A stretch of 48,915 nucleotides of DNA from Acidobacteriota bacterium (GCA_019236695.1 JAFAIN010000154.1:1-48915), one strand, 5' to 3'. Positions 3,895 to 21,445 are shown, counted from the stretch's first letter. Made by a program: numbers and translations. Notes: generated from the letters alone by a model not told the origin.

Positions 3895-5658
3895 GTGGCC
3901 ATTTCCATTCTGGCGCTGCACGCGCTGCTCTCGCTTGTAATCATTCGAGCGCTATGCTTCCGGGCCACCCTGGGGTGGCGGGCGCTTGCCGCCTTTCTGG
4001 CCTATGGATTCGTCGCCGGGCCGATTGCTGCAGGATCGATTGAGCACTTCGTCTCGCCCTATGGCTGGAACTTCACCAGCCAGTGGGCGCCGACTTTGGT
4101 CGCGCTCGTCACCTCTGGCGCACTGATGCTCGCGCTGCTGCTGCCGGTATTGTCGCTGCTGAGGCACCAGGCAATCCGGAGTTCTCTTTCGGCGGCTGAC
4201 ATTTTTTTGGCGGCATTTCTGGCGGGATACGGCTTCGATCTGCAGCAGAGCCTGTTCGCTTCCATGAATCCGGGCTCGCCGCTTACGTTCTCCATGCTGC
4301 CGCCCGGCCTGGTGGAAACCACGAGCGCCACCGCTGCCTGCTTTGCCTACCTTTGTGCTTTCCCCGCTCTCGTGCTCTCCGCGGGCAGGCGATGGCTCCC
4401 TGATCGCAAATTCAACCCCCTGTTGCTTGCGCTCGGAATCGTAATCAGCGGTGCGGTTTACGCAGCCGACACAATGGCGGCCGGAAACCAGTTGGGTGGA
4501 ACGCTGCTCGGGGGCGAATGGCCCTATTGGGCAATGATTGCGGCTTTGCTGGCGGCGCAGGCGCTCGAGGCCCGCGCCGTTCCCCAGGGAACGCCCGGCG
4601 CGATGGGAGAGTGGCGCGCCGCCATGGCGGCTCTGTTCAGCGGCGATTGGAGCGGTTCGCGGGCCGCCGCCGGGCGTTATCGGCACGCGCTCCGCCGGCA
4701 GTTGGCGCCGCCCTCATCGAACAGCCCGAACCCGGCGACGGGCCAACCATCCACTGCGCCGGCTGTGCCTGCACCCGCCGGCGTTTCCAAAGCACAGCCG
4801 GCTGCACGCGTGAGCGCCCTGATGGCATGGGTGCGCGCGCACCGCCTGCAGGCCGCGCTGGTGTTCTTTGCGGCAGCACTGGTTTTCATGCCGGGATTGC
4901 CGTGGCTCGAGCAGCTTTTCTGGACGGGCCAGGTGCCGGCACAGGGCGGGAACTACGCCGTGCCAGTGGTGCATTGGGTGGTGCAGTGGCTGCACATGCC
5001 GCTCACCGAGAGCCAGCTCAGCACGGTTTCGCTTGCGCTGCTGGCTATTGTGCTTTGGCGCTACATAACTGCGGCGGGGGCGCCGCTGCGCCGCAACGAC
5101 GTGGACCTTGCCGCCCGCTATGCCGGCGAACGCGGCACCCTGATGGCCGCGATGATCCTTTCGGTGCTGGCCATCGTCTATGGCCATCTCGAGCAGCTCT
5201 ACCGCGCCGGCGGGCAGATTGCCTGGCTGGCGGGCGCGCGATTTTCCAACCTGCCGCCCAGCGGGCTACCGACCGAAGCGTTGGCGTTTGCCGCCGTAGC
5301 CACCGGCATTGCCCTGCAGGCCGCGGACCGTTGGCGTCGCGCTCCGCTCGAGCTTCGCCGCCGCTCGGCAATTACGCGCGCCCTGCATTTCTGCGCGCTG
5401 CTGCTGGGGGCCTGGGCCGTGTTCGCGGTCGTTGGGCCAGTGGAATCGGCCCTCCATGGCTGCTGTGGCGCCAGCCTGTTTCGCTGGTTTGGAGGGAACG
5501 GCAACTCCGCGGGTGACGTGCTGATCGGGCTGTTCACGGTCGCCGTGGCCTACGGCATTTTTCGCGGCATCCGCTCGGGGGTCGCGCACCTGCTTGCATA
5601 TTTCAGCACGGATGGCCGCCCGGCGCTCGCCCCCCGCGCGCGCGCTGCGAACGGATGA
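3895..5658 (+). CDS. Polytopic integral membrane protein of unknown function (two hydrophobic halves joined by a Pro/Ala/Ser-rich linker)
   Basis: 587-aa ORF with a GTG start 5 nt after GGTGGAGGG. Many hydrophobic helices. Central linker RRQLAPPSSNSPNPATGQPSTAPAVPAPAGVSKAQPAA. Its stop (5656-5658) is 3 nt from the next ATG. No family recognised by eye. Confidence 0.65.
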   Translation: MAISILALHALLSLVIIRALCFRATLGWRALAAFLAYGFVAGPIAAGSIEHFVSPYGWNFTSQWAPTLVALVTSGALMLALLLPVLSLLRHQAIRSSLSAADIFLAAFLAGYGFDLQQSLFASMNPGSPLTFSMLPPGLVETTSATAACFAYLCAFPALVLSAGRRWLPDRKFNPLLLALGIVISGAVYAADTMAAGNQLGGTLLGGEWPYWAMIAALLAAQALEARAVPQGTPGAMGEWRAAMAALFSGDWSGSRAAAGRYRHALRRQLAPPSSNSPNPATGQPSTAPAVPAPAGVSKAQPAARVSALMAWVRAHRLQAALVFFAAALVFMPGLPWLEQLFWTGQVPAQGGNYAVPVVHWVVQWLHMPLTESQLSTVSLALLAIVLWRYITAAGAPLRRNDVDLAARYAGERGTLMAAMILSVLAIVYGHLEQLYRAGGQIAWLAGARFSNLPPSGLPTEALAFAAVATGIALQAADRWRRAPLELRRRSAITRALHFCALLLGAWAVFAVVGPVESALHGCCGASLFRWFGGNGNSAGDVLIGLFTVAVAYGIFRGIRSGVAHLLAYFSTDGRPALAPRARAANG

Positions 5659-5661
5659 GCC

Positions 5662-6294
5662 ATGGTACTGCCGGCTGCCGCATCTTCGACAAACCGCGAG
5701 CGCATCCTGCGCTGGACTGGGGCAGTCTGCGCCTCGCTCTCGCTTGCGGCCCTGGTGGGCCACGTCTTCGGCTGGATGCCAATGCCGTTTTTCCTCGAGT
5801 TCTTCGGCGTTCCCGCGTTCCTGGCGCTGTTTGCGCTAGCCGCCTACGCGCGGCGGGTGCGGGCCGATCTTTATATCAACGGGCTCTTTATCGGGCTGGC
5901 CGGAGGAGCCGCCGCCACCGTGGTCTATGACGGCGTGCGCATGCTGATTCATCATTACCGGCTGTTCGATTACAACGGCTTTGTGCCCATCCTGATGTTC
6001 GGAAGCTGGATCACGGGAAAGCCGGTCGCTTCACACGCGGCCGCCGTCGCCGGCTGGATCTACCACTACTGGAACGGGCTGGCATTCGGCGTGATGTATG
6101 CGCTGTGCCTCGGCCGCCGGCACTGGCTGTTCGGCGTAGCCTACGGAATCCTGATGGAGTGCTGCATGCTCGGGCTGTTCCCGTTTTTCCTGAAGGTGAA
6201 CAACAAATTTGATTTTGTAGCGGTCAGCATGATCGGGCACGTTTTTTATGGCGGCGTGCTGGGCGCTGTTGTGCAGCGCTTCGGCAGGCGATGA
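5662..6294 (+). CDS. Small multi-pass membrane protein of unknown function
   Basis: 210-aa ORF. Its ATG lies 3 nt after the upstream stop. About 5 hydrophobic helices and an aromatic/His-rich segment AGWIYHYWNGLAFGVMY. Its TGA overlaps the next ATG (ATGA at 6291-6294). Confidence 0.65.
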   Translation: MVLPAAASSTNRERILRWTGAVCASLSLAALVGHVFGWMPMPFFLEFFGVPAFLALFALAAYARRVRADLYINGLFIGLAGGAAATVVYDGVRMLIHHYRLFDYNGFVPILMFGSWITGKPVASHAAAVAGWIYHYWNGLAFGVMYALCLGRRHWLFGVAYGILMECCMLGLFPFFLKVNNKFDFVAVSMIGHVFYGGVLGAVVQRFGRR

Positions 6295-6815
6295 GCTGCG
6301 CGGAGGATCGAATGGTAAAAATCATGCGGCTGGTTCTCCTGGCTTCCGGGTTGTCGCTCTGGGCATCGCCGCTCTGGGCTGGCGATTGCAGCGGCCCTGA
6401 CGACTGTGGCGCCGTTCCTGACAATTTCTCGAAATCCATGGTGGTGGTCAGCATCTTTGCCGGCGCGGGGCTGGCATTCCGCAGCGCCAACGGGTCCGAT
6501 ACTCCGACCACCGTCGAGAAGAGCGGCAACGGCGATTCAGGCAGCGGCGACTGGTGGGCCGAACTGGAGGCGCCGGGTGCCTCTCCCGCGCCGGCCGGCA
6601 CACAACCTCCCGACCCAGGCGCCTTTGGCGACCCCGGCGACCTTCCCGATGAACCGTTTGATCCCGGCCCTCTTCCTCCGCCGGTTCCCGGAGGAGGAGT
6701 TCGGGTTGCCGATCCGGAACCCATTCCGATGGATCAGGGCGAGCCCGATCCGCTGGCTGACGATACGGCCAAAGGCGGCAACCCGAATTTGGGCAAACTC
6801 GGCGACGACAATTGA
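6291..6815 (+). CDS. Secreted/membrane-anchored acidic Pro/Gly/Asp-rich protein of unknown function
   Basis: 174-aa ORF with an ATGA overlap onto the upstream gene. Signal-like MRLVLLASGLSLWASPLWAG, then DCSGPDDCG, one hydrophobic helix MVVVSIFAGAGLAF, then a low-complexity tail (PPDPGAFGDPGDLPDEPFDPGPLPPPVPGG). Alternative in-frame ATGs at 6312 and 6324. Confidence 0.55.
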   Translation: MSCAEDRMVKIMRLVLLASGLSLWASPLWAGDCSGPDDCGAVPDNFSKSMVVVSIFAGAGLAFRSANGSDTPTTVEKSGNGDSGSGDWWAELEAPGASPAPAGTQPPDPGAFGDPGDLPDEPFDPGPLPPPVPGGGVRVADPEPIPMDQGEPDPLADDTAKGGNPNLGKLGDDN

Positions 6816-6838
6816 TGGATTGGCGGAAAGGAGCGGAT

Positions 6839-8488
6839 ATGCGGCTTGCGAATCGCTGCTTCAGCGTTGCTCTGGCGCTCGTGATAATCGCGTGGTCTTC
6901 GTCCAGCCTGCAGTGTCAGATTGAACGGAAGACTACGCGCATCAAGCTCCGCGTGAACAATCAATGCAACAGCACAAAGCCGGATGAAGTGGAGGTGCAG
7001 AGCTGGCTGAATGACGGCCGCGGCAACGCATCGGGCGGCAGCGCCACCATCCAGCTCACGCCCCAGGGAAACGGCGTATTTGAAGGATCGGCCACCATCT
7101 CGGTGCCGTGGGGGCCGGGGCTGGGCGACCCGAAAGACTGGAGCATTGGAAAAATACGCTCCACCACCGGCTATTACGATTATCCCGACGGTGCCCCAAT
7201 CTGCGCTGTCATAACCTGCAAGGATCGCACCTGCAAGTGCGCCAATACTAACGGGCAGCCCGCCAATGTGAACTACAAGGCAGGCAAGAATGAGCAGGTA
7301 ATTGAAATCACGTGTGGTTGCGTGACCAATGCTCCAATCATTCCGGTGGACTACTGGCCGGGCAACTCAAAACCGGTGTACCCGGAAACGGCGAGCGCCG
7401 CCACCTCGTCTCCGGCGGTCGCTGCGACATCGGCGGTCGTCGCGGCGTCGGCCGTGGCCTACACGGCTACGCTGGTAGGCGTGGTGCTTCCTTCCGACAC
7501 TCAGCCGGGCGAGGTGGCGTCGGCGACCGTGGTTACTGACCCCGCGGATTATGCGGATGTTCCCGGACTGAAGGTAGTGGAAGCCACAGTGCCGCTGGCC
7601 ACCGATTCGCACGGCACCGTATCGCTCGACGGAGTGGTTCTGCAGACGCCCGATGGCCACCGGCAGCCGGCCACCGGCCGGGTGCTGCTGCAAACCGCGG
7701 CCAGCGCGACCGAGCTGGCGCTGAACTTTCTCCGTTCCGGCGAAGATTCGCCGCTGGCCGCGAAGACGGTAGAGCTTACGCGGCCGGCCGGCGCCGCAGT
7801 CTCCACTACGGCTACGCCCGCCACCGCAGCGGTGAGCGATTACCACGCTTCGCCGGTGTGCGGCGAGGGAGCGCTGCAGGTTATCCATGGACCGCTGGGG
7901 GGCGACAGCAGCGTGACCAGAGTGCTGGTGGATGACAAGCCGGGCGCCATTGTGGCCGAGAACCGCCGTGCTGTTTATTGGCGGCTGCCGGAGAACACCG
8001 CGCCGGGAGCGCATCGTTTAGTGCTGCAGGAAGGCGAGAAGACGCTGGCGTCTTTTCCCGTGGCAGTAGTGGGACTGCGGCTGACGGCGGATCGCCTGAC
8101 GCTGGTGAAAGGCGAAACCACCACCGTGCATGCCCAGGTGCTTGGCGCGGACGCGATTCCCGATTCCGCCTGGCGCGGCGGGCTGGAGACGGCTTTGATT
8201 GATGCGGCGCACCTGCAAAAGCTTGCGCCCGGCGTTCGCGCGCCGAATGAGAAACAGCCGGGAGCGATTCTGCTGCGGCTGGAGAATGCCTCGTCGCAAT
8301 CAGTTGACCTGGCCGGCGCAAAAGGTGGCGTGATCCTGCAAACCCTGCAGAAAGGATCCTCTGCGGGCGCACCTTTCACCTATAAAGTTACGGCCAGGGA
8401 AGCGGGAGGATTCAAGATCAATGCAAACATCATCCCGATGCTGGCCCCGATTGCGGGCGAGGCAGCGCAGAACGCCGGCATGCGTTAG
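6839..8488 (+). CDS. Secreted protein with an N-terminal Cys-rich domain and C-terminal IPT/Ig-like module (paralogous to 10869-12062)
   Basis: The ORF track gives 6812-8488. I prefer ATG 6839 because GGAAAGGAG lies 6 nt upstream and it yields the signal peptide MRLANRCFSVALALVIIAWSSSSLQC. Cys-rich region (CAVITCKDRTCKCANTNG...ITCGCVTN). Ala/Ser/Thr/Val linker. C-terminal segment VIHGPLGGDSSVTRVLVDDKPGAIVAENRRAVYWRLPENTAPGAHRLVL resembles IPT/TIG topology. Confidence 0.7.
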   Translation: MRLANRCFSVALALVIIAWSSSSLQCQIERKTTRIKLRVNNQCNSTKPDEVEVQSWLNDGRGNASGGSATIQLTPQGNGVFEGSATISVPWGPGLGDPKDWSIGKIRSTTGYYDYPDGAPICAVITCKDRTCKCANTNGQPANVNYKAGKNEQVIEITCGCVTNAPIIPVDYWPGNSKPVYPETASAATSSPAVAATSAVVAASAVAYTATLVGVVLPSDTQPGEVASATVVTDPADYADVPGLKVVEATVPLATDSHGTVSLDGVVLQTPDGHRQPATGRVLLQTAASATELALNFLRSGEDSPLAAKTVELTRPAGAAVSTTATPATAAVSDYHASPVCGEGALQVIHGPLGGDSSVTRVLVDDKPGAIVAENRRAVYWRLPENTAPGAHRLVLQEGEKTLASFPVAVVGLRLTADRLTLVKGETTTVHAQVLGADAIPDSAWRGGLETALIDAAHLQKLAPGVRAPNEKQPGAILLRLENASSQSVDLAGAKGGVILQTLQKGSSAGAPFTYKVTAREAGGFKINANIIPMLAPIAGEAAQNAGMR

Positions 8489-8533
8489 GCTTCCTTTCCG
8501 TCATTCACAGCGGGAGGCGCGGAGGCGCGCAGG

Positions 8534-10144
8534 ATGAAGCAGGGCACACGCGAACGTCGCACCAAGGTTGCGCCGCTCCTCCGGGCGGCGGTCGTGGCGC
8601 TGGCTTGCGTGCCCCTTCTTCTGTGCACAGCGCTCGACGCTCAGCCCGGCTCGGAAGAAGACCTCCGCGCCCAAATCCTCTCCCTGCAGCGCGAGTCGGC
8701 CTGGTACGCCAAAGTGGCGGCGCAGGAAAAGCAATCGGCGGAGCAATGGCGCGCCAGTGCCCAGACCATGCGGGAAATCGGAAAACAGAAGAACAACAAG
8801 GATGCGCTCGAGCTTGCCGACAACGATGATGCCCGCGCAAAAGAAATCGCGGCGGATGCCGAACGCCTGCAGGGTGTCTCCGCGCAGAAAGCGCGGGAAG
8901 CGCAGCAACTTCAGCAAAAGCTGAACGATACGCGAACCCTTGACCTCACGGGCTTCTGGCAGGATGCGCAGCATCATCGCGTCATGATCGTGCAGTCAGG
9001 CGAGCGGGTCGTAATGGACCTGGGGAACGGCATCGCCCTCGCCGGCACGTTCTCAGCGCGATCACTGGCGGTGAAGTACAAATGGACGGCAGAGGAGGTG
9101 CAGCGCCACATCAAGTCGGAATCCGAAAGCGGGCCGCAGGCGGTTGCCGATAGGCAGGCAGCGCTGAAGAGCCTGGTGGGCAAGGTCGTACGGTTGAGCG
9201 GAACGGTGAACAACGAAGCTACGCGGATTGCCGGCACTTACGACGAGGATTTTGAAGCGGACGCCGAAACCAGCAGCAAATCAGGAACCGCGGTTCACAG
9301 CGGCTCGCCGGCCAAAGCCGAAATCACGCTGACCAAAGAAAAATCGCAGCCGCATTGCAGCACCCAAACCGTGGTCACGGTTCCGAGCGACCGCAGCCGC
9401 AGCCGCATTGGGGTTGGGGAGCAGGTAATGGTGCGCTTTGTTTCTTCGAGCGGCAATCCCGGCGCCATTCGCTGGAGCGTGAGCGGAGGCGGGCAACTCT
9501 CAGGCCCCAAAGGCACGGACGTGATGTTTACGGCAGGAGACCGCGGCGGCGCCGTGGCCGTGACGGGCCAAAGCGCCTCAGGCGAGTACTGTTCGGCGGC
9601 CTTCACCGTCGTCGAGCCCGAAGAAGTCATCCTGAAGCTGATTCCGAACAGCGAGTTCCACATCAACAAATCGCTGAGCTGCGGATTCCTGGGGACTTGG
9701 ATCGTGCTTCCCGGCGATGTTTCGTTCAGCCGCATCGAGATTCGCGAGCTTGAGGCCTATGCTCCGACAACCATCAAGCTGCTGCCGGAAGACCAGCCGC
9801 ATCACGCCAATCCCGAGTTCGCGCCCATGGGCGACACGATTGAAGGCCTGGGCACACCCTTCCGAGCGAATTTTTACGATCAGGTGGTAGCGAAATTCGG
9901 CGGCGTCGAGCTGGATGCGCCGGTCCGCTGGCTGTTCCGGCAGTTCCCGGGAGTGGCCTCGCACCGCATTCCCTACGAGTTTCGCGTGGGCAGCGGCGAA
10001 CCGAAACAGTTTACTTACGTGCTGCAGATCCAATCACAGAAGGACGATACCTGCACCATCAGCAAAGGCGGCGTGAAGGTCACCCGGAACTATGACGACC
10101 CGACCTCGGACTGGAAGAGCCGCGGAATTTCCAATCCGTTTTAG
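8534..10144 (+). CDS. Secreted coiled-coil protein with beta-rich C-terminal domains, function unknown
   Basis: 536-aa ORF with GGAGG upstream. Signal/TM VAPLLRAAVVALACVPLLLCTALDA. About 100 aa of heptad-like charged sequence (AQILSLQRESAWYAKVAAQEKQSAEQWRASAQ...AREAQQLQQKLND), then beta-rich regions (IRWSVSGGGQLSGPKGTDVMFTAGDRGGAVAVTG). Confidence 0.7.
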   Translation: MKQGTRERRTKVAPLLRAAVVALACVPLLLCTALDAQPGSEEDLRAQILSLQRESAWYAKVAAQEKQSAEQWRASAQTMREIGKQKNNKDALELADNDDARAKEIAADAERLQGVSAQKAREAQQLQQKLNDTRTLDLTGFWQDAQHHRVMIVQSGERVVMDLGNGIALAGTFSARSLAVKYKWTAEEVQRHIKSESESGPQAVADRQAALKSLVGKVVRLSGTVNNEATRIAGTYDEDFEADAETSSKSGTAVHSGSPAKAEITLTKEKSQPHCSTQTVVTVPSDRSRSRIGVGEQVMVRFVSSSGNPGAIRWSVSGGGQLSGPKGTDVMFTAGDRGGAVAVTGQSASGEYCSAAFTVVEPEEVILKLIPNSEFHINKSLSCGFLGTWIVLPGDVSFSRIEIRELEAYAPTTIKLLPEDQPHHANPEFAPMGDTIEGLGTPFRANFYDQVVAKFGGVELDAPVRWLFRQFPGVASHRIPYEFRVGSGEPKQFTYVLQIQSQKDDTCTISKGGVKVTRNYDDPTSDWKSRGISNPF

Positions 10145-10159
10145 CCAGAGAGGTGCCCG

Positions 10160-10717
10160 ATGATCGTGGCAGCGTTTGTTCCGATTGTGGTGATTGCGGT
10201 CCTGGGCTGGCTGCTGCGCAGCCAGGAGAGCGCAGCGCGCATGGAAGGTGCCGATGTTCACGTTCTGGAGTATGGCCTCAAGTGGCGGTTTGTCGCCATG
10301 GCCGTTCCCGCCCTGTGGACGGTCATCTTTGTGGTGCTCTTCGTCGAGGCCCCGCCCAAGCCTGACGATCGCCTGGCCATGCTCCTGCTGATTGCGCTGG
10401 CTACCGGAACGGTGATTCCCTATGCCGTAACCGTGTTCGGCGTTTCGTACCGCATTTCACCGCGCGGGCTGGAGAAGCGCAGCCCCTGGTCGCGGAATTT
10501 TCAGGCGCCGTGGAGTGGCGTAAATTCCGTAAGCTTCAATCCGGTGTTGAACCAGTTTTGCGTAAAGACGCAGTCCGGCACCGCGCGTATTTCTACCTGC
10601 CTGAACGGCCTTGCCGACCTGGAGCAGGCTTTCACCGAGCGCGTTCCGGCGGACGCATGGAGCAGCGTAAAACGATATTTTGCTGTCGCGGCGAAAATGC
10701 GGGGCTCTCGAGGATAG
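10160..10717 (+). CDS. Membrane protein with C-terminal PH-like (bacterial pleckstrin-homology-type) domain, function unknown
   Basis: 185-aa ORF starting 15 nt after the upstream stop. Three hydrophobic helices (IVAAFVPIVVIAVLGWLL, FVAMAVPALWTVIFVVLFV, LAMLLLIALATGTVIPYAVTVFGV). These are followed by YRISPRGLEKRSPWSRNFQAPWSGVNSVSFNPVLNQFCVKTQSGTARI, the pattern of membrane-anchored bPH domains. Confidence 0.65.
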   Translation: MIVAAFVPIVVIAVLGWLLRSQESAARMEGADVHVLEYGLKWRFVAMAVPALWTVIFVVLFVEAPPKPDDRLAMLLLIALATGTVIPYAVTVFGVSYRISPRGLEKRSPWSRNFQAPWSGVNSVSFNPVLNQFCVKTQSGTARISTCLNGLADLEQAFTERVPADAWSSVKRYFAVAAKMRGSRG

Positions 10718-10753
10718 CTTTCTGCAGGCGAGTTGCGCGCCGGCAGTTCCGGC

Positions 10754-10781
10754 TTGACATTGCCCCGGTGCGAGATATACT
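10754..10781 (+). promoter_or_regulatory. Candidate sigma-70-type promoter inside the envelope cluster (TTGACA-N16-TATACT)
   Basis: TTGACA at 10754-10759, a 16-nt spacer, TATACT at 10776-10781. It lies in the only sizeable intergenic gap of the cluster (10718-10868), about 90 nt upstream of the 10869 start. Confidence 0.45.
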
Positions 10782-10868
10782 CCCCATCCGAACGGTCTTG
10801 CCTCCCGGGAGCTCTCCGCATTCATTGCCGCTTTTGTTATTGCGGCTCTCGCAACGGTCGAGGTGCAA

Positions 10869-12062
10869 ATGCGGGTTGGTTTCGCAAGGTATTGCAGGCT
10901 CCCGGCCGCGGTCATCGCGGCGGCGGGGTTGGCCTCGCTCGCCGCGGGCCAGAAGACAGGCAAGCCTCCCGCGTCATCGCTGGATTTGGGCATCGTCGTA
11001 TTTCAGCAAGTTCCGGCCGGGCAGGAGACTTCAGGCAGCATCGTACCTGACCCGGAGAGTTACACCGCAATTCCGGCTCTGCGCGTCATCCCGCTGGAAC
11101 TTCCGTTGCCGCCCCACGCAAAGGACGCGCCCGGCGGCACAAGCGACAATGCGGAGCAGGCGGCTACAGCGGCTGTATCATCCCCGGTTCACCCCTCCAC
11201 GAAGGCTCCGCTCGAGCGCCTGGTGGTGGATACGGGCGATGGAAGAAAACAAAGCGGCGCCCAGCCTCTGACCTGGGTTCCGGCGGCCAATCAGGCAATC
11301 AATGAGATTGTGGCGTTCTTGCGCGACGATCCGGCTCGCAAGCTCGCTATGGCAGGAGTGCCGGTGAAGAGCGATTTGGTCCCGGCAGGTCTATCGCATC
11401 ACGCGGGCGTCGGCGCCGAGCCCACCGCCTGCTCCATGCCTTCCGTAGCAGTTCCGGGAGGAGTTGAGGTAATCCATGGCGACACCAGCGGGAACAGCAG
11501 CAGGATGACGGTAGCGCTGGATGGCTCCCCGGCGCAGATTGTGGCTGCCAGGCCCGGCACGGTGTTCTGGCGGATTCCCGGCACGGTGCAGCCGGGCCCG
11601 CATGAAGTGGTATTCGCGCCGGGCCCGGGACGGCCACCGGTGCGGCTGCCCCTGAGCATCCTGGCGCTTTCGATGAACGCCGATCGCAGAGAACTGGTTA
11701 AGGGCGAGCGCACACGAATGACATTGACGGTCAGCGGCCTCGAAGCAATGCCCGAATCGGCGTGGCAATCAGAGCTGCCGCCGGCCGACTTGATGGACGT
11801 GCACCGCTGGGAGCTGGAAACAGGGGTTCACGCTCCTTCGCCCGTCGGCGCAGGAACCGTAGTGGTGGTGCTGGAGAACAGGTCGGCACAGGCAATCCGC
11901 ATGGGCAACGGGAAAAAGGTCGTTCTGATGCTGCACCATGAAGATTTTGCGCACGGCCCTTATATCTATCGGGATCAATTGCAGTCGCTGAGCAGTGGCG
12001 GATTTGACATTCGTGCCACCGCCACCGCGTTCCTGAAGCAATCGATAGGCCGGCCACAATAG
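10869..12062 (+). CDS. Secreted protein carrying the same C-terminal IPT/Ig-like module as 6839-8488
   Basis: The ORF track starts at GTG 10863; ATG 10869 has GAGG 6 nt upstream. Signal peptide MRVGFARYCRLPAAVIAAAGLASLAAG. C-terminal about 190 aa are colinear with the C-terminus of the 6839-8488 product (VEVIHGDTSGNSS...VFWRIPGTVQPGPHEVVF...LSMNADRRELVKGERTRMTLTVSGLEAMPESAW...VVLENRSAQAIRM). Confidence 0.7.
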   Translation: MRVGFARYCRLPAAVIAAAGLASLAAGQKTGKPPASSLDLGIVVFQQVPAGQETSGSIVPDPESYTAIPALRVIPLELPLPPHAKDAPGGTSDNAEQAATAAVSSPVHPSTKAPLERLVVDTGDGRKQSGAQPLTWVPAANQAINEIVAFLRDDPARKLAMAGVPVKSDLVPAGLSHHAGVGAEPTACSMPSVAVPGGVEVIHGDTSGNSSRMTVALDGSPAQIVAARPGTVFWRIPGTVQPGPHEVVFAPGPGRPPVRLPLSILALSMNADRRELVKGERTRMTLTVSGLEAMPESAWQSELPPADLMDVHRWELETGVHAPSPVGAGTVVVVLENRSAQAIRMGNGKKVVLMLHHEDFAHGPYIYRDQLQSLSSGGFDIRATATAFLKQSIGRPQ

Positions 12063-12101
12063 TTCGCCGGCTGCCGCAAGAGTCGCGGCTGGAGGAAATG
12101 C

Positions 12102-14747
12102 ATGGCTCGCAACTTTGCTCGGTTGGTCTTGAAGCTTGCGGTATTGTCCGCGGTTGGCTCGGCCGCGTTGGCCCAGGCGCCGAAATCAGCCAATGTCACA
12201 ATGGCGCCGAATTCCGAACAGCAGGGATCGGTGACGATCCGAAATGGCTGCAAGGGAGACATTACGTTCGGCATTAAAACCAATGCGGACTGGCTGCAGG
12301 TTACGACGCCGCAAGTGCCGGTGGCATCCGGCGGGTCGGGCGGGGTGCGATTCAACGTCAGCTCCATTGGCCTGGGGCCCGGCACATATAACGGGGAATT
12401 GACGGTTTATTGCGCCGGCGGCGCGTGTAAGGACCAGAACGGCACGAGCTGCATTGAAACCGGCCAGAATACCTTTCCGGTCACGATGACGGTGGTTGCG
12501 GAAAACAAGCAAGGCGGCGGAGGCGGGGGCGGTAGCCCTGCAGGCGGCAAGCCGGGCGCGGGAGGGAAAGCGAGCACGCCGGCCAGCCAGCCAACCAGCC
12601 CGAACGGCGACGCACAGAATGGAAACGGTGGCACGGGAACGGGCGCCACAAGCCCCGTAAGCACCACCGGCGGCGATAACGGAACAGGCACCGGAACGGG
12701 CACCGGCGGTGGAACCGGAACTACAACTTCCAATGACATTCCGACCAGCCAGGATGGCGGTGGTGGTGGCGATCTTCCATGGGGTGCGGTCACGTTCGGC
12801 GCAGGCCTGGTCGGGGCGGGCGCCGGATTGATGACGGGAAGCGGCACGCCGCCGGCGGCGAAGCCGCAAGTGGGGACAACCGAAAAACCTAAAACCCAGT
12901 CAGCGGGTGACTGGTCAGCAACCGTGAGCGGGCCTGCGCAGGATACGGCTAACCCAACCGGCACAACTCCAACCACCCAAAGCACCACGACCACAACACC
13001 AACTCAGCCCACGGGAGATGGAACCGGCACTACCCAGGGGACAACTCCGAAGACCGGCGGGTCCTGGGGCGCTACCGCGCAGACGGGAACACAGGAACGC
13101 CAGCCTCAAGGCACCACTCCCGGCACCCAGACCACCGATGGCGGCGGTGGGACTACTCCCACCAAAACCAAAGACGGCGGTTCCTGGGGTGCCACCGCGC
13201 AGACGGGAACGCAGGAACGCCAGCCTCAAGGCACCACTCCCGGCGCCCAGACCACCGACGGCGGGGGTGGGACTACTCCCACCAAAACCAAAGACGGCGG
13301 CTCCTGGGGTGCTACCGCGCAAATGGGAACGCAGGAACGCCAGCCTCAAGGGACCACTCCCGGCTCCCAGACCACCGACGGCGGGGGTGGGACCACTCCC
13401 ACGCAAACCAAAGACGGCGGCTCCTGGGGCGCCAGCGCGCAAATGGGTGGCAGCACACAAGACAAGCAGGCAGGCCAGGGCCCGTCGGATGCTGGCGGCG
13501 GAGGCGTTCCGCCGACGCAAAGCAGAGACAAAGATGGCGGCGCGTGGGGCGCATCCATCGACACCGGCAAGGCGCCGGAGCACAAGCCCGGCGACCTGAA
13601 CGAAGGCGGAGGCCACACATTCAGCCGGGGCACGACCAAAGCTGACCTGGAACAGGCCAACAAGCCGCCAACCGCGGAGGAACTCGCGGCGGCCAAGCCG
13701 GGAGGCGGTGGTTCCGACGACTATGCCACCCGCGAGAAGAAAATCCGCGAGCAGATGGCGAACCGGCGCATTGCGGAAGAGGCGCCCCCGCCCATTCGCG
13801 TGCGCACGGGGCGCACGCAGCAACGCGTGCCGTGGAACGGCAAGTACGATCCAACCGGCGAGGGCAAGTGGATCAAGGGCGTGCGCGAGGACAAGGTCAA
13901 CCTCGAAAAGGAGAACGATTCCTCGAAGAAGGACTACCTCATGCGCCGCAACTGGCAAATTGAAATCTATGAGGACGCGTACGCGCACGCACGCCGCGAC
14001 CTGGGCATGGACAACCTGACGGCGCATGCCTACGCGCAGATCAAGCTGCAGGATTGGCTGGATAAGAGCCTGGAGGACTTCGAGCAGACCTTCGCAACCC
14101 ATTTTGCCCAGCTTGGCCAGGCGCTGGCGGCCGACCCGTTCCACGGCCTGAACAGCGCCATTGAGGAACTCGGGCAGCTCGGCGAAGAGGCCGCGGCCGG
14201 GATGCGCAGAGCCGGATCGGTGACGGAAGGCGCCGCCGGAAGAGCTGCCGAGGAGGAAGAATCGGTCACCCCTGACTGGTTCGACAAGGAGATGGAAGAG
14301 CATCCGGAAAACTTCGAGGCGGATGAAAGCGAGCCGATCCTCACTCATCCTGAAACCGGCGAGCCGGTTCCGGCCGAAGTGGATCCGGCCACCGGCGCGC
14401 TGCGGCCAAAGGATCCAGCCGCAATGGGCACTGGAACGCAGGCGAAGCCGGGCGGGCGCATCGCCGATCCGGAAGCGCCCACCATGGGCGATCCCAAACT
14501 CGATCCCAATAAGACCCAACCCGACCTGTTGCCGGGCGACAAGATGCCTGCCAAGGGGATGCAGAAAACGGGATATGACAACTTCAACAAAATTCCGGTA
14601 GATCCGAACGAAGCTCCCGGAACCCGCTTGCCTTACAGCAAGGGCCGGCAGGCTCTGAATGACCCTTTGGATCCGGCAATCGATCCGGCCACCGGCAAAC
14701 CGGTGCTGGAGAGAACGGAGATCATGCCGCCTCCGAAAAAGAACTGA
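12102..14747 (+). CDS. Large (881 aa) secreted/membrane protein: N-terminal Cys-framed Ig-like domain, Gly/Thr-rich region, 40-aa tandem repeats, charged helical and Pro/Asp-rich C-terminus; function unknown
   Basis: ATG preceded by GGAGGA. Signal peptide MARNFARLVLKLAVLSAVGSAALAQA. Ig-like segment SVTIRNGCKGDITFGIKTNADWLQVTT...GPGTYNGELTVYCAGGAC. Poly-G and GTG runs. Possible TM LPWGAVTFGAGLVGAGAGLM. Repeats GGSWGATAQTGTQERQPQGTTPG.QTTDGGGGTTPTKTKD. Consistent GC3-rich frame along the whole length. Confidence 0.8.
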   Translation: MARNFARLVLKLAVLSAVGSAALAQAPKSANVTMAPNSEQQGSVTIRNGCKGDITFGIKTNADWLQVTTPQVPVASGGSGGVRFNVSSIGLGPGTYNGELTVYCAGGACKDQNGTSCIETGQNTFPVTMTVVAENKQGGGGGGGSPAGGKPGAGGKASTPASQPTSPNGDAQNGNGGTGTGATSPVSTTGGDNGTGTGTGTGGGTGTTTSNDIPTSQDGGGGGDLPWGAVTFGAGLVGAGAGLMTGSGTPPAAKPQVGTTEKPKTQSAGDWSATVSGPAQDTANPTGTTPTTQSTTTTTPTQPTGDGTGTTQGTTPKTGGSWGATAQTGTQERQPQGTTPGTQTTDGGGGTTPTKTKDGGSWGATAQTGTQERQPQGTTPGAQTTDGGGGTTPTKTKDGGSWGATAQMGTQERQPQGTTPGSQTTDGGGGTTPTQTKDGGSWGASAQMGGSTQDKQAGQGPSDAGGGGVPPTQSRDKDGGAWGASIDTGKAPEHKPGDLNEGGGHTFSRGTTKADLEQANKPPTAEELAAAKPGGGGSDDYATREKKIREQMANRRIAEEAPPPIRVRTGRTQQRVPWNGKYDPTGEGKWIKGVREDKVNLEKENDSSKKDYLMRRNWQIEIYEDAYAHARRDLGMDNLTAHAYAQIKLQDWLDKSLEDFEQTFATHFAQLGQALAADPFHGLNSAIEELGQLGEEAAAGMRRAGSVTEGAAGRAAEEEESVTPDWFDKEMEEHPENFEADESEPILTHPETGEPVPAEVDPATGALRPKDPAAMGTGTQAKPGGRIADPEAPTMGDPKLDPNKTQPDLLPGDKMPAKGMQKTGYDNFNKIPVDPNEAPGTRLPYSKGRQALNDPLDPAIDPATGKPVLERTEIMPPPKKN
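13056..13450 (+). repeat. In-frame tandem repeat, 120-bp period, about 3.3 copies (copies start at 13056, 13176, 13296, 13416)
   Basis: Direct alignment of successive 120-nt units: 7 differences between copies 1 and 2 and 9 between copies 2 and 3 by my count (about 92-94% identity). The period is a multiple of 3 and encodes a 40-aa unit. Confidence 0.9.
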
Positions 14748-14789
14748 AGCGCTATTCGCAATTGAGCCTGAGCGAAGGAGGAGAGAATC

Positions 14790-15791
14790 ATGGCAACGCC
14801 GCAACTTTCACCCGCACCCGCGGCCGGCGGCAAGAGCGAGCTGGCGCGGCGCCTGATCATCGCCGTGCTGGTGTTCGGCATAACGATTGTGGTTGCAATG
14901 TCGCTGCCTCGCGTGCTGCCGGGCGAAATGTCGGCCGCCGAAATGGCGGCCCATCCCTCCCCGGGGTGCAGCGCGTGCCCGCCCACCGATCAGATTGCGG
15001 CGGCGGGAATTTTGGCGACTTCCGATGGCGTGTATGTGAACGTCCGCTTTGCCGCGCAGCCGCTGAATACGCGCCTTGGCATAACGCTCGAAGGCGATTC
15101 CACGCCCATCGAGCTGGTGCAGGCCGGCAAGGGATGGAAGTATGCCGGGAAAGTGCGGCCCGGCTCGCAGCGCGTCACCGGCATTACGCAGCGCAACAAT
15201 CAGGTGATCATCGCCCTGCCCGCAACCGTACGGGCCGGGGGCGTGGCAGTGAGCACCGGCACGGGCGACCGGCTGCCGCAAACCGGATTCATCGCGCCCA
15301 CGTATCCCGCGCCTCCGCATTTCAATGCCACCGATTTCGTGCTGCTGGTCGCGCTGGCGATCACCGCCTGGTATGGATACAAGCGAGGACTGTTCGTCGA
15401 GCTGGCCGATCTTGCGGTTCTGATCGTCAGCGTGACGATTGCGGCCCTGGTGTACAAACCAGTGGCGGCAGCGTTCTCCGATGTAGTGGGCTCCAGCGGC
15501 GCGGCAGCAACCATTGCGGGAGGCCTTATCGTTACGCTGCTGGCGTTCGCGGGAATCACCCTGGTGCGCCGCAATTTCCCCCGGCTCGGCTCTATGGTGG
15601 CGCCGTTCGACGCCCGTACCAGCGGAGTGATGGGGGGAATCCTGGGCTGCGTCCGGCAGCTTCCGTTAATTGCCATGATTCTGGCGGCCGGAACCGACCT
15701 GGCGCTGCTGCACTGGGCTTCGCGGAGCATTCAATCATCGCTGTTTGCCGCATCGCTGATGCACGCCTGGAGGACACTGTTCTCTGCATAG
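14790..15791 (+). CDS. CvpA-family membrane protein fused to an N-terminal TM-anchored extracytoplasmic domain
   Basis: 333-aa ORF with GAAGGAGG upstream. N-terminal anchor LARRLIIAVLVFGITIVVAM plus about 150 aa of soluble sequence. The C-terminal half, DFVLLVALAITAWYGYKRGLFVELADLAVLIVSVTIAALVYKPVAAAF plus three more helices, matches the CvpA (colicin V production protein) pattern. Confidence 0.75.
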   Translation: MATPQLSPAPAAGGKSELARRLIIAVLVFGITIVVAMSLPRVLPGEMSAAEMAAHPSPGCSACPPTDQIAAAGILATSDGVYVNVRFAAQPLNTRLGITLEGDSTPIELVQAGKGWKYAGKVRPGSQRVTGITQRNNQVIIALPATVRAGGVAVSTGTGDRLPQTGFIAPTYPAPPHFNATDFVLLVALAITAWYGYKRGLFVELADLAVLIVSVTIAALVYKPVAAAFSDVVGSSGAAATIAGGLIVTLLAFAGITLVRRNFPRLGSMVAPFDARTSGVMGGILGCVRQLPLIAMILAAGTDLALLHWASRSIQSSLFAASLMHAWRTLFSA

Positions 15792-15801
15792 CCGCCGCCG
15801 G

Positions 15802-16923
15802 ATGAATTGGAAGCTGACAATTCGCTTGACCGCCGCGCTGGCGCTTGCGCTGCTGGCCGCCCTGCCGCGCGTGGCAGCGCAGACTTGCGCGAACTGCGAG
15901 AAGCTGGGCCGCACTGCGGCCGACCTTCAAATGCAACTGCTGTGGGCCAACGAGACGCTGCGCCAGTTGCCCGACCTGCAAAACCAGGCTGATGCCCTGG
16001 AGCGGCAGCGCATCGCGGCGCTTCGCCAGGCAGATGTTGATATTGACCACGCGCGCCTGTACGGCAACCTTGCTCGCGACGCCCGCGAACTGGGGGACCG
16101 GACGCACTCTGACGCCGATTACGAGCGCGCCGCCGGCTACACCCAGAATTCGCAACAGGCCAAGGCGGATTTTGAAGCCAATGAAGCCAAGGCGAAAGCG
16201 CTGGGCCAGCAGCAGGCCGAGCTTCGCGCCAAAATCGCTTCGGCCAAGCCGGAAGTTGACAGGCTGACAAAAGAAGTCGCCGTAGCATGGCAGGCTTACC
16301 ACGATTGTTTAACCAAAACCAAGTGCCCGCCGCCCACCGCCACCGGCGCGGCGCATTCGGATTGCCCCGACGCCGATGAGTGGCTCAACCGTGCCGATGA
16401 ACTCTATGGCATGGCACAGCGGGAGCACGGGTTTGCCATGCAGGCACGCTCGCGCGGCGATGCCAAATCGGCGGATTACTTCGAGCAGCAGGCACGGTCG
16501 TCAGATTCGATGGCGCGAACTCGCGAGCAAATGGCGGCCTACGCGTTGTTGAAGTGCGGCGAAAGACCTGCTGTTGGCCCGCAGCAGCCGCAACCCATCG
16601 CAGAAAGCGCGGTGCCGCCAGGGGCGATTCGCCTTCCTCCCGAGGGAGAAGAGCGGGGCGCCGTCACCATTACGAACCATTGCGACAGGGCTGAGTCCTA
16701 CCGCGTCGAAACTACCGGCCTGCCCGAAGGAATGATCACGGCAGCGGATGAATTGCGGGTGGATGCCGGCGCCACCCGCCCGTTCGTCCTCATTTACAGC
16801 AGCAAAGGGCTGAAACCCGGCCTGTACAGCGGAACGCTGCGCATCGTCTGCCTCACCTGCAACGCCTCATGCCCAAGGCAGGACACCTCTTCACCGGTGC
16901 TGATTTTCATCAGGGATAAATAA
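15802..16923 (+). CDS. Secreted coiled-coil protein with C-terminal Cys-framed Ig-like domain, function unknown
   Basis: 373-aa ORF starting 10 nt after the upstream stop. Signal peptide MNWKLTIRLTAALALALLAALPRVAAQ. Long helical charged region (LQMQLLWANETLRQLPDLQNQADALERQRIAALRQ...AELRAKIASAKPEVDRLTKEVAVAWQ). C-terminus AVTITNHCDRAESYRVETTGLPEG...GLKPGLYSGTLRIVCLTCNASC. Confidence 0.7.
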   Translation: MNWKLTIRLTAALALALLAALPRVAAQTCANCEKLGRTAADLQMQLLWANETLRQLPDLQNQADALERQRIAALRQADVDIDHARLYGNLARDARELGDRTHSDADYERAAGYTQNSQQAKADFEANEAKAKALGQQQAELRAKIASAKPEVDRLTKEVAVAWQAYHDCLTKTKCPPPTATGAAHSDCPDADEWLNRADELYGMAQREHGFAMQARSRGDAKSADYFEQQARSSDSMARTREQMAAYALLKCGERPAVGPQQPQPIAESAVPPGAIRLPPEGEERGAVTITNHCDRAESYRVETTGLPEGMITAADELRVDAGATRPFVLIYSSKGLKPGLYSGTLRIVCLTCNASCPRQDTSSPVLIFIRDK

Positions 16924-17061: not shown

Positions 17062-18312
17062 ATGAAGAAGAGCTTGGCCATGATGCTGCTTGCCGCGGCG
17101 CTGCTTGGAGGGCCGCTGTTCGCCCAGGAAGGGGCGGTGCCGAAGGGCATTCCCCATCTGGATCACGTCTTCGTGATCATGATGGAAAACCACGCGTATG
17201 GGCAGATTGTGGGCAATCCCAACGCCCCGTTCGCCAACAGCTATATGAACTCCGCGAATGCAGCCACAAACTACTACGCAGTTGGGCACCCCAGTTCAAC
17301 CAACTACCTGGAAATTGTAGGCGGGTCGAATTTTGGCGTGCGCAGCGACAACGCTCCTGACTGGCACAACACCTCCTGCACGCCAAACCTGATATCAGGG
17401 TTAACCAATTTCGACACCCCAAACAGCGGCAACGTGTGCCCCATTCGCGGCGCGGGCACTGACGCCGCCACACCGGCTGTGGACACTTCAGGAAACGAAT
17501 GCACCGCGCCCTGCTCGCTGGTTGACCTCGATGGCGCCAAAGGCTTCACCGCTGCGCCGAATACGGTTGGCAAGACCATTGCGGACCAGTTAAGCGAGCG
17601 CGGCATGACCTGGAAAAGCTACCAGGAAAGCCTGCCTCCCTCCGGCGCTGACAAGGTAACGTACAGTGACGGCTATTACACCGACGTCACTGTTCCGGGG
17701 ACCATTGCCGGTGGGTTGCTCAAGCTCTACGCCGCCAAACACAACCCGTTCGTGTATTTCGCCAGCATGCAGGAGGCGCTCGCGTCCGGAGCGCACAATT
17801 TCGCAGGATTCGAGGGCGAAGGCGGCCTGTACGAAGACCTGGCTTCGGGAGAGGTTCCGAGGTTCTCGCTTGTCGTTCCCAACCAGTGCAACGATCAGCA
17901 TGGGCGGGGAAATGGCGGCTCCTACTGCGACTTCGACTTTAATACCAACGGAACGCAGCAGGGCCTGAACCCGGCTCTGATTTATGTCGGCGACTTGAAG
18001 CTCCGCAACCTGGTTCATGCCATCCATGCTTCCCGGGCATGGCGTGACGGCAGAAGGAGCGCAATCGTGGTGGTGTGGGACGAAAACGATTACAGCCTGT
18101 CGCCTAACACGAACCGGGTGCTGGCCATCGTCGAAACCAACTACGGCCGCGGCGGCCGCACGAGCAACCAGTTCTATACGCATTTTTCGCTGCTCAGGTC
18201 GGTGGAAGGCGCCCTCGGGCTTCCATGCCTGAACCACGCATGCGACGCCAATACAAACTCAATGTCTGATCTGTTCGGCCACGAAGGAGATGACGACGAC
18301 GGACGGAACTGA
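17062..18312 (+). CDS. Phosphoesterase-family protein (phospholipase C / acid phosphatase AcpA type), secreted
   Basis: 416-aa ORF. Signal peptide MKKSLAMMLLAAALLGGPLFAQ. Family hallmarks HLDHVFVIMMENHAYGQIVGNPNAPF, GHPSSTNYLEIVGGSNFG, PNQCNDQHG, VVWDENDY. Confidence 0.85.
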   Translation: MKKSLAMMLLAAALLGGPLFAQEGAVPKGIPHLDHVFVIMMENHAYGQIVGNPNAPFANSYMNSANAATNYYAVGHPSSTNYLEIVGGSNFGVRSDNAPDWHNTSCTPNLISGLTNFDTPNSGNVCPIRGAGTDAATPAVDTSGNECTAPCSLVDLDGAKGFTAAPNTVGKTIADQLSERGMTWKSYQESLPPSGADKVTYSDGYYTDVTVPGTIAGGLLKLYAAKHNPFVYFASMQEALASGAHNFAGFEGEGGLYEDLASGEVPRFSLVVPNQCNDQHGRGNGGSYCDFDFNTNGTQQGLNPALIYVGDLKLRNLVHAIHASRAWRDGRRSAIVVVWDENDYSLSPNTNRVLAIVETNYGRGGRTSNQFYTHFSLLRSVEGALGLPCLNHACDANTNSMSDLFGHEGDDDDGRN

Positions 18313-19851: not shown

Positions 19852-19867
19852 CGTGGTGAGAGTACAT

Positions 19868-19907
19868 GGGAAAAGGCAAAAGGAGAAAGGCAAAAGGCAA
19901 AAAGGGG
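19868..19907. repeat. GGCAAAAG-type octad repeat block (left flank of HigBA island)
   Basis: gggaaaaggcaaaaggagaaaggcaaaaggcaaaaagggg. The 17-mer aaggcaaaaggcaaaaa (19887-19903) recurs exactly, inverted, at 21337-21353. Confidence 0.75.
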
Positions 19908-19989
19908 CAGTGACCTGGGCTAGCCCACTCCCGCCTGAACTCCTTGGGAGCGCAGAACCGGAACGCGATGAGGCCGCGCACAAAAACGG

Positions 19990-20053: not shown

Positions 20054-20332
20054 GTGATTAAGAGCTTTGCAGACGCCGCTACGGCAAGGTTCTGGGAAAG
20101 CGGCGAGTCGAGCAAAGGATGGCCGAAGAAAGCCACTCGACGCAAGCTGGCAATGCTGGAGCAGGCCTCTGAGCTGAATGACCTTGCATCCCCTCCCGGC
20201 AACCGACTGGAGAAGCTCAAAGGCGACCGGCAAGGTCAGTACAGCATCCGCATTAACGATCAGTACAGGCTTTGCTTCAATTGGAGAGATGGCGATGCGG
20301 AGAACGTTGCAGTAAGCAAGCACTATGAATGA
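20054..20332 (+). CDS. higB: Type II toxin HigB (RelE/ParE superfamily, 'plasmid maintenance system killer' type)
   Basis: The ORF track starts at TTG 20045. GTG 20054 gives MIKSFADAATARFWESG..., the canonical HigB N-terminus. Core motif PPGNRLEKLKGDRQGQYSIRINDQYRLCFNWRDGDAENV. The toxin gene precedes the antitoxin gene, as in HigBA modules. Confidence 0.85.
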   Translation: MIKSFADAATARFWESGESSKGWPKKATRRKLAMLEQASELNDLASPPGNRLEKLKGDRQGQYSIRINDQYRLCFNWRDGDAENVAVSKHYE

Positions 20333-20347
20333 GGAGTATGAGCAGGC

Positions 20348-20704
20348 ATGCCGGTTCCAAGGACAGGGAATCCGAATTGGCGAGTTCATCCGGGCGAGGT
20401 CTTGAGAGAGGAGTTTCTCAAGCCGCTGAAGATGAAGCCCGCGCAGTTGGCAAAGAAGCTCTGCGTCTCGGCGCCCACCGTGAACGAAATTGTTCGCGAG
20501 AGGAGGGCAGTCAGCGCAGATATGGCGGTGCGGCTGGCGTGGTTTTTCAACACCACAGAGCAGTTCTGGCTTGGCTTACAGGCTGCTTACGATGTGAGCC
20601 GGGAGAGGGCTCACCTGTCAAAGACGCTCAAGAAGATCACACCGCTGGGAAAAATTGCAGCGGTCACAGTCGCCGCGGTTGGCGTTGTGCCGCTGGTAAA
20701 GTAA
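20348..20704 (+). CDS. higA: Type II antitoxin HigA (XRE-type HTH, addiction module antidote protein)
   Basis: 118-aa ORF starting 15 nt after higB, with GGAG upstream. HPGEVLREEFLKPLKMKPAQLAKKLCVSAPTVNEIVRERRAVSADMAVRLAWFFNTTEQFWLGLQAAYD is the classic HigA/VapI HTH pattern. Confidence 0.9.
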   Translation: MPVPRTGNPNWRVHPGEVLREEFLKPLKMKPAQLAKKLCVSAPTVNEIVRERRAVSADMAVRLAWFFNTTEQFWLGLQAAYDVSRERAHLSKTLKKITPLGKIAAVTVAAVGVVPLVK

Positions 20705-20787
20705 GGGAGCTTGGAACGAAGCTGCCTGCGGCCCGTTTTAGCCGTTTGGGAGGAATCAGAACTGTTGGATGCGGTGTCCAAACCGAT

Positions 20788-21336: not shown

Positions 21337-21371
21337 TTTTTGCCTTTTGCCTTCTGCTTTTTGCCCTTTTC
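21337..21371. repeat. GGCAAAAG-type octad repeat block, inverted orientation (right flank of HigBA island)
   Basis: tttttgccttttgccttctgctttttgcccttttc. It is the reverse complement of the block at 19868-19907 and includes an exact 17-nt match. Confidence 0.75.
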
Positions 21372-21372
21372 A

Positions 21373-21400: not shown

Positions 21401-21445
21401 TCGCGCGTTCTGCTGCACGCATTTTTCACGCTGAGGTATTTGCGC

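Follow-up and report, generated by a model that had tools for sequence, protein, structure and literature searches.

Introduction

Conserved operons of unknown function are common, and the envelope biology of the Acidobacteriota, which are among the most abundant soil bacteria, is poorly known. Several described systems provide points of comparison for the locus analysed here, a run of ten genes (g1 to g10, positions 3895–16923) in a 48,915-nucleotide (nt) stretch of DNA from an Acidobacteriota bacterium (GCA_019236695.1, JAFAIN010000154.1:1-48915), the whole of which we call the window. Polymorphic toxin loci encode proteins with a constant N-terminal part and a variable C-terminal toxin, and an immunity gene follows. 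In the Tol-Pal and ExbBD-TonB systems, a proton-driven complex of the inner membrane acts with a partner that spans the periplasm. For the small membrane proteins of the DUF6789, DUF2938 and DUF1440 (YagU-like) families, we know of no assigned function. CvpA is described (bioRxiv 10.1101/2020.09.25.314492) as an inner-membrane protein with roles in envelope stress and resistance to bile, and with a function that is largely unknown.

The ten genes had been described in an initial annotation as a tightly coupled cluster of envelope-targeted proteins and as a candidate undescribed envelope system. We show here that g1, g2 and g3 form an undescribed conserved cassette, present in soil metagenome contigs and metagenome-assembled genomes (MAGs), the few labelled ones being mostly from Acidobacteriota. 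The locus as a whole is best read, with a probability of about 0.8, as composite: a conserved trio with a variable partner, set within a lineage-specific array of secreted immunoglobulin-like (Ig-like) and coiled-coil proteins. The idea of an undescribed envelope system is thus retained for a conserved part of three to four genes to which no known machinery corresponds, and is given up for the ten genes as a conserved unit.

A conserved three-gene cassette

Loci were gathered both through g1 and through g2, and the counts given include the window. Scans of genome and metagenome contigs with the single g1 protein gave no match; a trimmed alignment of the g1 family did find loci. Wherever the available DNA is sufficient, the order is constant: a g1 relative of 560–630 amino acids (aa), a g2 relative of 210–228 aa and a g3 relative of 86–188 aa, all on one strand and with short or overlapping junctions. 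This arrangement occurs in 11 diverged lineages (the window and L083, L084, L087, L097, L098, L100, L101, L102, L105 and L106), and three further JGI contigs carry genes of matching sizes. A g1 relative precedes g2 wherever upstream DNA exists. Between these loci g2 is 50–84% identical; g1 is only 25–34% identical to that of the window. The genes flanking the trio differ in every lineage, and the trio is therefore a self-contained unit.

These observations bear on an account of the locus in which envelope genes without a shared function happen to lie in a run and the trio stays together through recent common descent only. Such genes are indeed frequent in the window, and most of the ten products have few or no detectable relatives, but the order of the trio has persisted while g1 diverged to 25–34% identity and all the flanks changed. 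Because the order has outlasted such divergence, the linkage is expected to be under selection, and we give an absence of shared function very little credence.

No relative of g4, g6, g7, g8, g9 or g10 was found at E ≤ 1e-3 in any cassette locus examined. These six genes are lineage-specific additions, outside the cassette unit in the other lineages examined. In the closest relative with data (L097, with a g2 that is 74% identical), a g5-like gene directly follows g3, so g4 looks like an insertion in the lineage of the window. The conserved gene neighbourhood which the initial annotation had asked to be tested for is found for g1-g2-g3 (11 lineages) and for the g5-type domain (about six), and is absent for g4 and g6 to g10 in the cassette loci examined.

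The cassette proteins

The g1 protein is built of an N-terminal half with about seven transmembrane (TM) helices and a C-terminal half with about five, separated by a helical Pro-rich linker. By an exhaustive phmmer search g1 was placed in a family that forms 93 clusters at the 50% identity level, the members being mostly about 550–600 aa long and 25–37% identical to g1. G38, D102, F104, G111, G113 and E225 are invariant in this family, which is characterized by the motif S-x-A-D-A-F-L-x-x-F-x-x-G-F-G-x-D-L and by near-invariant basic residues (R18, R23 and R166). None of 31 family members matched a Pfam model, and the family profile found no match in the PDB. An AlphaFold2 model of g1 from a 31-sequence alignment is all-helical (pLDDT 85, pTM 0.89), and its comparison with the PDB by Foldseek returned nothing significant (best E = 0.012, TM-score 0.12). 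Judged from this predicted model, no solved structure has this fold as a whole chain. Read by the positive-inside rule, the model helices would place D102, E225, R18, R23 and R166 near cytoplasmic helix ends and the helical, Pro-rich segment 230–304 in the cytoplasm.

Distant g1 relatives at three loci (L090:223-3177, L091:10007-12916 and L092:3018-5051) are fused to C-terminal extensions without a Pfam match, giving proteins of 677–984 aa in total, and are not accompanied by g2 and g3. Those of L091 and L092 adjoin a divergently oriented processive GT2 glycosyltransferase gene.

One possible role for g1 is that of a transporter, flippase or polymerase for a lipid-linked glycan or envelope precursor, with g2 and g3 as accessory proteins and the secreted neighbours as unrelated passengers. 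Its size, its many helices and its conserved charged residues, if these indeed lie near the cytoplasmic face, would suit such a role, as would the GT2 gene beside the distant relatives and a PMT_2 glycosyltransferase gene 1.5 kb downstream of the cluster in the window. The two GT2 loci are nevertheless near-identical and amount to one observation, in the lineages examined the trio has no conserved neighbour for glycosyl transfer or polysaccharide synthesis, and the best Foldseek matches of g1 to transporters are not significant (TM-scores of about 0.12–0.16). We regard this role as very unlikely.

The best conserved gene of the cassette is g2. Its product scores above the DUF6789 (PF20587) cutoff (29.8 bits against 27.1, E = 7e-7). 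The same family is matched by 35 of 37 g2 relatives, a few of which also match DUF2938 or DUF1440. At E ≤ 1e-5 there are 106 relatives, about 100 of them 46–99% identical, from soil and peat metagenomes. Six are named by source: four are from Acidobacteriota (Terriglobales, Koribacter), one is from a Verrucomicrobiae MAG and one from a Deltaproteobacteria MAG. The invariant residues include Y89, D90, R93, W132, H135 and N138. In the literature that could be searched by text, DUF6789 was mentioned in an irrelevant paper only, without linkage to g1 or g3, and nothing relevant to the cassette was found.

The g3 protein carries a signal peptide, the motif A-G-D-C-S-G-P-D-D-C-G-x-x-P-D-N, a Gly/Ala-rich hydrophobic segment and an acidic Pro-rich tail. 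Its relatives, 42–59% identical over the N-terminal part, share the signal peptide, the pattern [AG]-[GD]-[DN]-C-x-x-[PE]-x-D-C and the Gly/Ala-rich segment followed by basic residues, and end in a variable, acidic, Gly/Pro-rich tail. The C-x5-C motif is present in 12 cassette loci. At one locus (L084:2880-3722) the g3 relative is fused to a Gln/Ala-rich, coiled-coil-like extension of about 200 aa, which replaces the usual short acidic tail.

The variable fourth gene

The gene that follows g3 codes for a secreted protein, 417–1226 aa long, in L097, L098, L101, the L087/L102 group and L105. These proteins are otherwise unrelated and have in common a domain of about 105 aa which starts with D-[LF]-T-G-x-W. 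The same domain occupies residues 137–239 of g5 (nt 8942–9250), between a coiled coil (about residues 40–135) and an Ig-like domain which is itself followed by a C-terminal domain. The g5 domain is 55–58% identical to that of L097 (E = 2e-5 by tblastn and 4e-8 by blastp); the corresponding values are E = 8e-5 for L098 in a pairwise comparison (2e-4 in another), 3e-4 for L102 and 1e-4 for L105. A hidden Markov model of the domain also matches L097, which was outside its training set, with E = 1.7e-8, and matches nothing else in the 1.66 Mb examined, which included 80 background Terriglobales loci and the rest of the window. The position of the domain differs among partners, being N-terminal, central or C-terminal, and the partners also bear coiled coils and Ig-like domains. 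On this sequence evidence, g5 is the version of the variable fourth gene carried by the window. An exact look-up of the g5 sequence gave no match.

The largest partner, of 1226 aa (L105:11201-14881), ends in a region, DAHHIVELQMGGRNEWWN, with a weak match to HNH (PF01844, E = 0.018, 15.6 bits against a cutoff of 21.4). This end (DAHHIVELQMGGRNEWWNIVPL...H) may be that of a nuclease-type toxin. Pfam scans of g5 and of the other partners gave no match to a toxin domain. In the same locus, an upstream Big_2 protein also ends in a D-L-T-G-x-W domain.

Such an arrangement could indicate that the trio acts in the export or delivery of, or in immunity to, variable secreted effectors comparable to polymorphic toxins. 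The constant part, used for recognition, would then be the D-L-T-G-x-W domain, and the remainder of the fourth protein would be a variable payload. A fourth gene that varies in size and domain order while keeping one domain, and the sub-threshold HNH match, are in line with this. The mobility of the shared domain within the partners is, however, unlike that of a trafficking domain, no partner has a toxin domain above threshold, two lineages have no partner, and there are no PADLOC matches. The genes downstream of the cassettes differ between loci, and no immunity-gene pattern was seen, the candidate scanned against Pfam being a 185-aa open reading frame (ORF) of L105. We therefore consider an effector module of this kind very improbable.

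Genes outside the cassette

As proposed in the initial annotation, g4 and g7 are paralogous, with 30% identity along a 350-aa alignment (E = 4e-35). Only three other relatives of their common module were found among 5.8 billion proteins, and these lie among unrelated genes. Relatives of g4 share only its C-terminal module of about 340 aa, each having a different N-terminal part. Neither g4 nor g7 has a Pfam match to IPT/TIG or other Ig-like domains. An AlphaFold2 model of g7 from a five-sequence alignment is an all-beta string of beta-sandwiches (mean pLDDT 58, cores 70–87), for which Foldseek retrieved generic Ig, IPT and macroglobulin domains with E down to 7e-5 and TM-scores of at most 0.2. 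This model agrees with the Ig-like label given earlier and adds no function.

The relatives of the g4/g7 module furnish some side observations. In P0004 (a JGI contig, sample 3300050821), an HExxH motif, HEKWH, occurs in the variable N-terminal part, for which Pfam gave no match; it hints at a metalloprotease-like head that can be joined to the Ig-like module. P0002 has a truncated Ser/Thr kinase fragment (L001:9589-10060) immediately upstream. A fusion of this kinase to the module was considered and rejected, the kinase being a separate fragment and P0002 having its own signal peptide. With many split genes, among them those for BacA, RNase J and FtsK, L001 looks like a frameshift-rich contig, and its gene calls are unreliable.

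The remaining genes are still more isolated. At 90% identity among 15 billion sequences, g6, g8, g9 and g10 are singletons, as is g1. The PH-like label of g6 did not find a counterpart among the bPH profiles, either with the full protein (E ≤ 0.1) or with its C-terminal 95 aa (E ≤ 10), and no g6 relative was found in any locus examined. The N-terminus of g8 resembles the C-terminus of g10 (E = 7e-8). The former matches BACON_2 below the cutoff (E = 7.5e-4, 19.8 bits against 25); g10 has no match to BACON or BACON_2 and only weak coiled-coil matches to SMC and JetC (E = 0.02–0.06). Within g8, a 120-bp tandem repeat (3.3 copies, 92% matches, nt 13050–13441) encodes 40-aa Gly/Thr/Pro-rich units and is a likely site of length variation. 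For g9, the proposed fusion of a CvpA domain to an extracytoplasmic domain was upheld by a Colicin_V (PF02674) match well above cutoff (E = 8.5e-12, 45.7 bits against 29.3), covering residues 182–323 and the four TM segments therein.

Organization of the cluster

The ten plus-strand ORFs were recovered at the coordinates first reported (Table 1), and the tight spacing was confirmed by the lengths of their junctions, which for the longest ORFs are 3, -4, -4, 45, 15, 145, 39, 42 and 10 nt from g1 to g10. All ten are judged to be coding because their GC content at third codon positions (GC3, 0.69–0.78) equals that of Pal, TolB and the other recognizable genes of the window. A further ORF at 14762–15805 (347 aa, Arg-rich, GC3 0.53), which overlaps g9, was rejected as a wrong-frame artefact of high GC; an annotation could mistake it for a gene. 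For g3, g4 and g7, later starts are likely in view of ribosome-binding sites and of the N-termini of relatives. GGAGGA lies 6 nt ahead of the g3 ATG at 6312, and AAGGAG ahead of the g4 ATG at 6839, from which a canonical signal peptide results. The junctions thus remain short, as originally stated, and the packing tight, while the two overlaps claimed at 6291–6294 and near 6812–6817 are probably gaps of 17 and 23 nt.

Table 1. Coordinates of the cluster features, numbered from the first nucleotide of the window
Feature	Position	Strand	Description
g1	3895..5658	+	587-aa polytopic inner-membrane protein; first cassette gene
g2	5662..6294	+	210-aa DUF6789 membrane protein with 4–5 TM helices; second cassette gene
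g3	6291..6815 (likely start 6312)	+	Small envelope protein; third cassette gene
g4	6812..8488 (likely start 6839)	+	558-aa secreted protein; Cys-rich N-terminal part, putative C-terminal Ig-like module of about 340 aa
g5	8534..10144	+	536-aa secreted protein; signal peptide, coiled coil, D-L-T-G-x-W, Ig-like and C-terminal domains
g6	10160..10717	+	185 aa; three N-terminal TM helices, C-terminal domain of about 90 aa
Sigma-70-like promoter	10754..10781	+	TTGACA, 16 nt, TATACT
g7	10863..12062 (likely start 10869)	+	399-aa secreted protein; putative Ig-like module as in the g4 C-terminus
g8	12102..14747	+	881-aa secreted protein; BACON-like Ig domain, Gly/Thr/Pro-rich repeats, helical domain, Pro-rich tail
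g9	14790..15791	+	333 aa; N-terminal TM helix, extracytoplasmic domain of about 140 aa, four-TM CvpA (Colicin_V) domain
g10	15802..16923	+	373-aa secreted protein; signal peptide, helical coiled-coil part of about 230 aa with Cys pairs, C-terminal BACON-like Ig domain

The only long gap, at 10718–10862, holds a promoter-like site which agrees with the sigma-70 consensus at 11 of 12 positions. Promoter-like sites are not enriched in the region (two, against a mean of 2.8 after shuffling), and the argument rests on the placement of this one in the gap. As this near-consensus promoter stands between g6 and g7, it suggests at least two transcription units, which we infer to be g1-g6 and g7-g10.

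Signal peptides and TM helices were called heuristically, from hydropathy. Signal-peptide-like N-termini were seen in g3, g4, g5, g7, g8 and g10, and TM segments in g1 (about ten), g2 (five), g6 (three) and g9 (one plus four), in agreement with the claim that each of the ten products has one or the other. The same crude criteria also class as envelope-targeted 12 of the window's 23 other ORFs, a base rate of about 50%, so that ten envelope products in a row are not exceptional and constitute weak evidence.

The equally early view that the cluster encodes no recognizable enzyme, ATPase, transporter or named machinery held in searches of Pfam, NCBIfam, PADLOC and PHROGs with all ten proteins, in which DUF6789 and Colicin_V were accompanied only by sub-threshold or coiled-coil noise, and in PDB sequence searches with g1, g4, g5, g8, g9 and g10, which gave no match. 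Separate domain pieces yielded nothing useful against Pfam at E ≤ 10, and family searches detected no ATPase, secretin, usher, chaperone, vWA/TPR, SLH or S-layer family among the ten proteins. Among the anti-phage models of PADLOC the sole match was that of g10 to JetC, of the coiled-coil type (E = 0.028). In the cassette loci of other lineages, no secretion, pilus, usher or Bat-like component was found; the partners gave only a weak Ig-like match to Big_2 or T2SS-T3SS_pil_N.

Together these data allow us to weigh the proposal from which the analysis started, namely that all ten genes belong to one dedicated envelope or cell-surface system whose products form a single structure. Its attractions are the common strand, tight spacing and envelope targeting of all ten, the paralogous modules which tie the two halves together (g4/g7 and g8/g10) and the lack of a known system that would account for the genes. 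Against it, the ten other lineages have only g1-g3, with or without a partner, and no relative of g4 or g6-g10, the promoter-like site stands in the g6/g7 gap, and the envelope base rate in the rest of the window is about 50%. The initial annotation had itself named homologs that are never co-located as evidence against its proposal, and for g4/g7 and full-length g5 the relatives do lie among unrelated genes. A single ten-gene structure is in our view unlikely. As six of the genes (g4 and g6-g10) have no counterpart beside the cassette in the other lineages examined, the label of a ten-gene unit is to be avoided and a ten-gene "system" should not be propagated as such.

Genomic surroundings

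The window otherwise contains ordinary chromosomal genes, among them those for GluRS, a sigma-54 activator, a MacB-type permease and GH57. An origin as a mobile island, plasmid or phage was considered and dropped, there being no tRNA, Rfam or PHROGs matches beside these ordinary neighbours. On plasmids, a distant DUF6789-like gene was the only match. The gene just upstream of the cluster encodes DUF2203, and the loci around its counterparts in 80 Terriglobales genomes contain no cluster gene; the identity of DUF2203 is at most 58% there (Terriglobales and Acidobacteriaceae MAGs), so that the source is probably an acidobacterium that lacks close relatives among the species genomes.

On the minus strand just upstream of the cluster (588–2929) are genes for Pal (OmpA domain) and a TolB-like PD40 protein, an adjacency not seen beside the cassette in the other lineages examined. 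Downstream of g10 are a gene for a secreted phosphoesterase (17062–18312) and, on the minus strand, that for the PMT_2 glycosyltransferase (18430–19983). A 290-aa ORF at 20329–21201 has no Pfam match and differs in composition (GC 0.557, GC3 0.52) from its neighbours (GC3 0.72–0.78); it may be of foreign origin or a spurious ORF. Further on, 4.4 kb downstream of the cluster, a 1171-aa Sortilin/BNR-repeat protein is encoded (21347–24862), in a neighbourhood rich in envelope genes.

Interpretation and possible mechanism

Several observations weigh against the composite interpretation. The paralogy of g4/g7 and g8/g10 and the tight packing mean that the ten genes may work together in this organism. 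Relatives of g6, g8, g9 and g10 beyond the 90% clustering were searched within the gathered loci only, which leaves room for a wider co-occurrence of these genes with the trio. On one JGI contig, g2 is followed by genes of 424, 186 and 291 aa, and to judge by sizes only, the 186-aa product could be a g6 relative. Other observations tell against the docking mechanism outlined below: L100 and L106 have no partner, genes on the opposite strand following g3; the shared domain gives mostly modest E-values in pairwise comparison (1e-4 to 3e-4); and the only full-length g5 relative (P0006, 50% identity) lies on a 3.4-kb contig with unrelated neighbours and no adjacent trio.

For the conserved trio and its variable partner we tentatively outline a docking mechanism. 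The g1, g2 and g3 proteins would be produced together and assembled as a complex in the cytoplasmic membrane, where the small, bitopic g3 would expose its short disulfide-loop motif on the outer face. The outward parts of the complex (the C-x5-C loop of g3 and the loop 124–149 of g1) would hold a Sec-exported partner by its D-L-T-G-x-W domain, and the coiled coil and Ig-like domains of the partner would then extend into the periplasm or the outer envelope. Conserved charged residues in membrane helices, D102 and E225 of g1 and D90, H135, E166 and H193 of g2, could provide an ion-coupled or catalytic step. As a description of how these proteins work this is doubtful. Taken together as one explanation, the composite architecture with docking is the account that we favour, with somewhat better than even confidence.

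In a bolder form, the trio would be a new kind of ion-coupled inner-membrane machine of Acidobacteriota which recognizes the D-L-T-G-x-W domain and anchors, exports or delivers the varied secreted proteins that bear it, some of them nuclease-type toxins, and which in this organism has recruited g4, g7, g8 and g10 into a larger surface structure. This we think unlikely.

Should the trio indeed be a working complex, g1 would represent a new membrane protein family without a fold match in the PDB, and the D-L-T-G-x-W domain would be a new recognition domain tying variable secreted proteins to the complex.

Comparison with known systems

Beyond the DUF label of g2, the cassette is outside the known kinds of system; this reflects missing knowledge, and no new mechanism has been demonstrated. 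The Bat operon, chaperone-usher adhesins and S-layer systems likewise comprise secreted proteins with Ig-like domains, which in the cluster are putative; none of its ten proteins matched a vWA, TPR, usher, chaperone, SLH or S-layer family. Like polymorphic toxin loci, the cassette loci combine a conserved module with variable secreted partners that contain a constant domain and, in one case, a weak HNH-like C-terminus. They differ in that the constant domain moves within the partners, and in having no toxin domain above threshold, evident immunity gene or nearby known secretion system.

The resemblance to Tol-Pal and ExbBD-TonB is one of possible working only, with membrane subunits that have conserved acidic residues in their helices and an extended or Pro-rich partner; there is no similarity of sequence or fold. 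CvpA is related to the cluster through the Colicin_V domain of g9, which adds to it an N-terminal TM helix and an extracytoplasmic domain and which is outside the conserved cassette. To the DUF6789, DUF2938 and DUF1440 proteins g2 is linked by its above-cutoff DUF6789 match. What sets the g2 subfamily apart from these is an additional N-terminal helix and the tie to g1 and g3, an association that, if the trio works as a complex, would give DUF6789 its first functional context.

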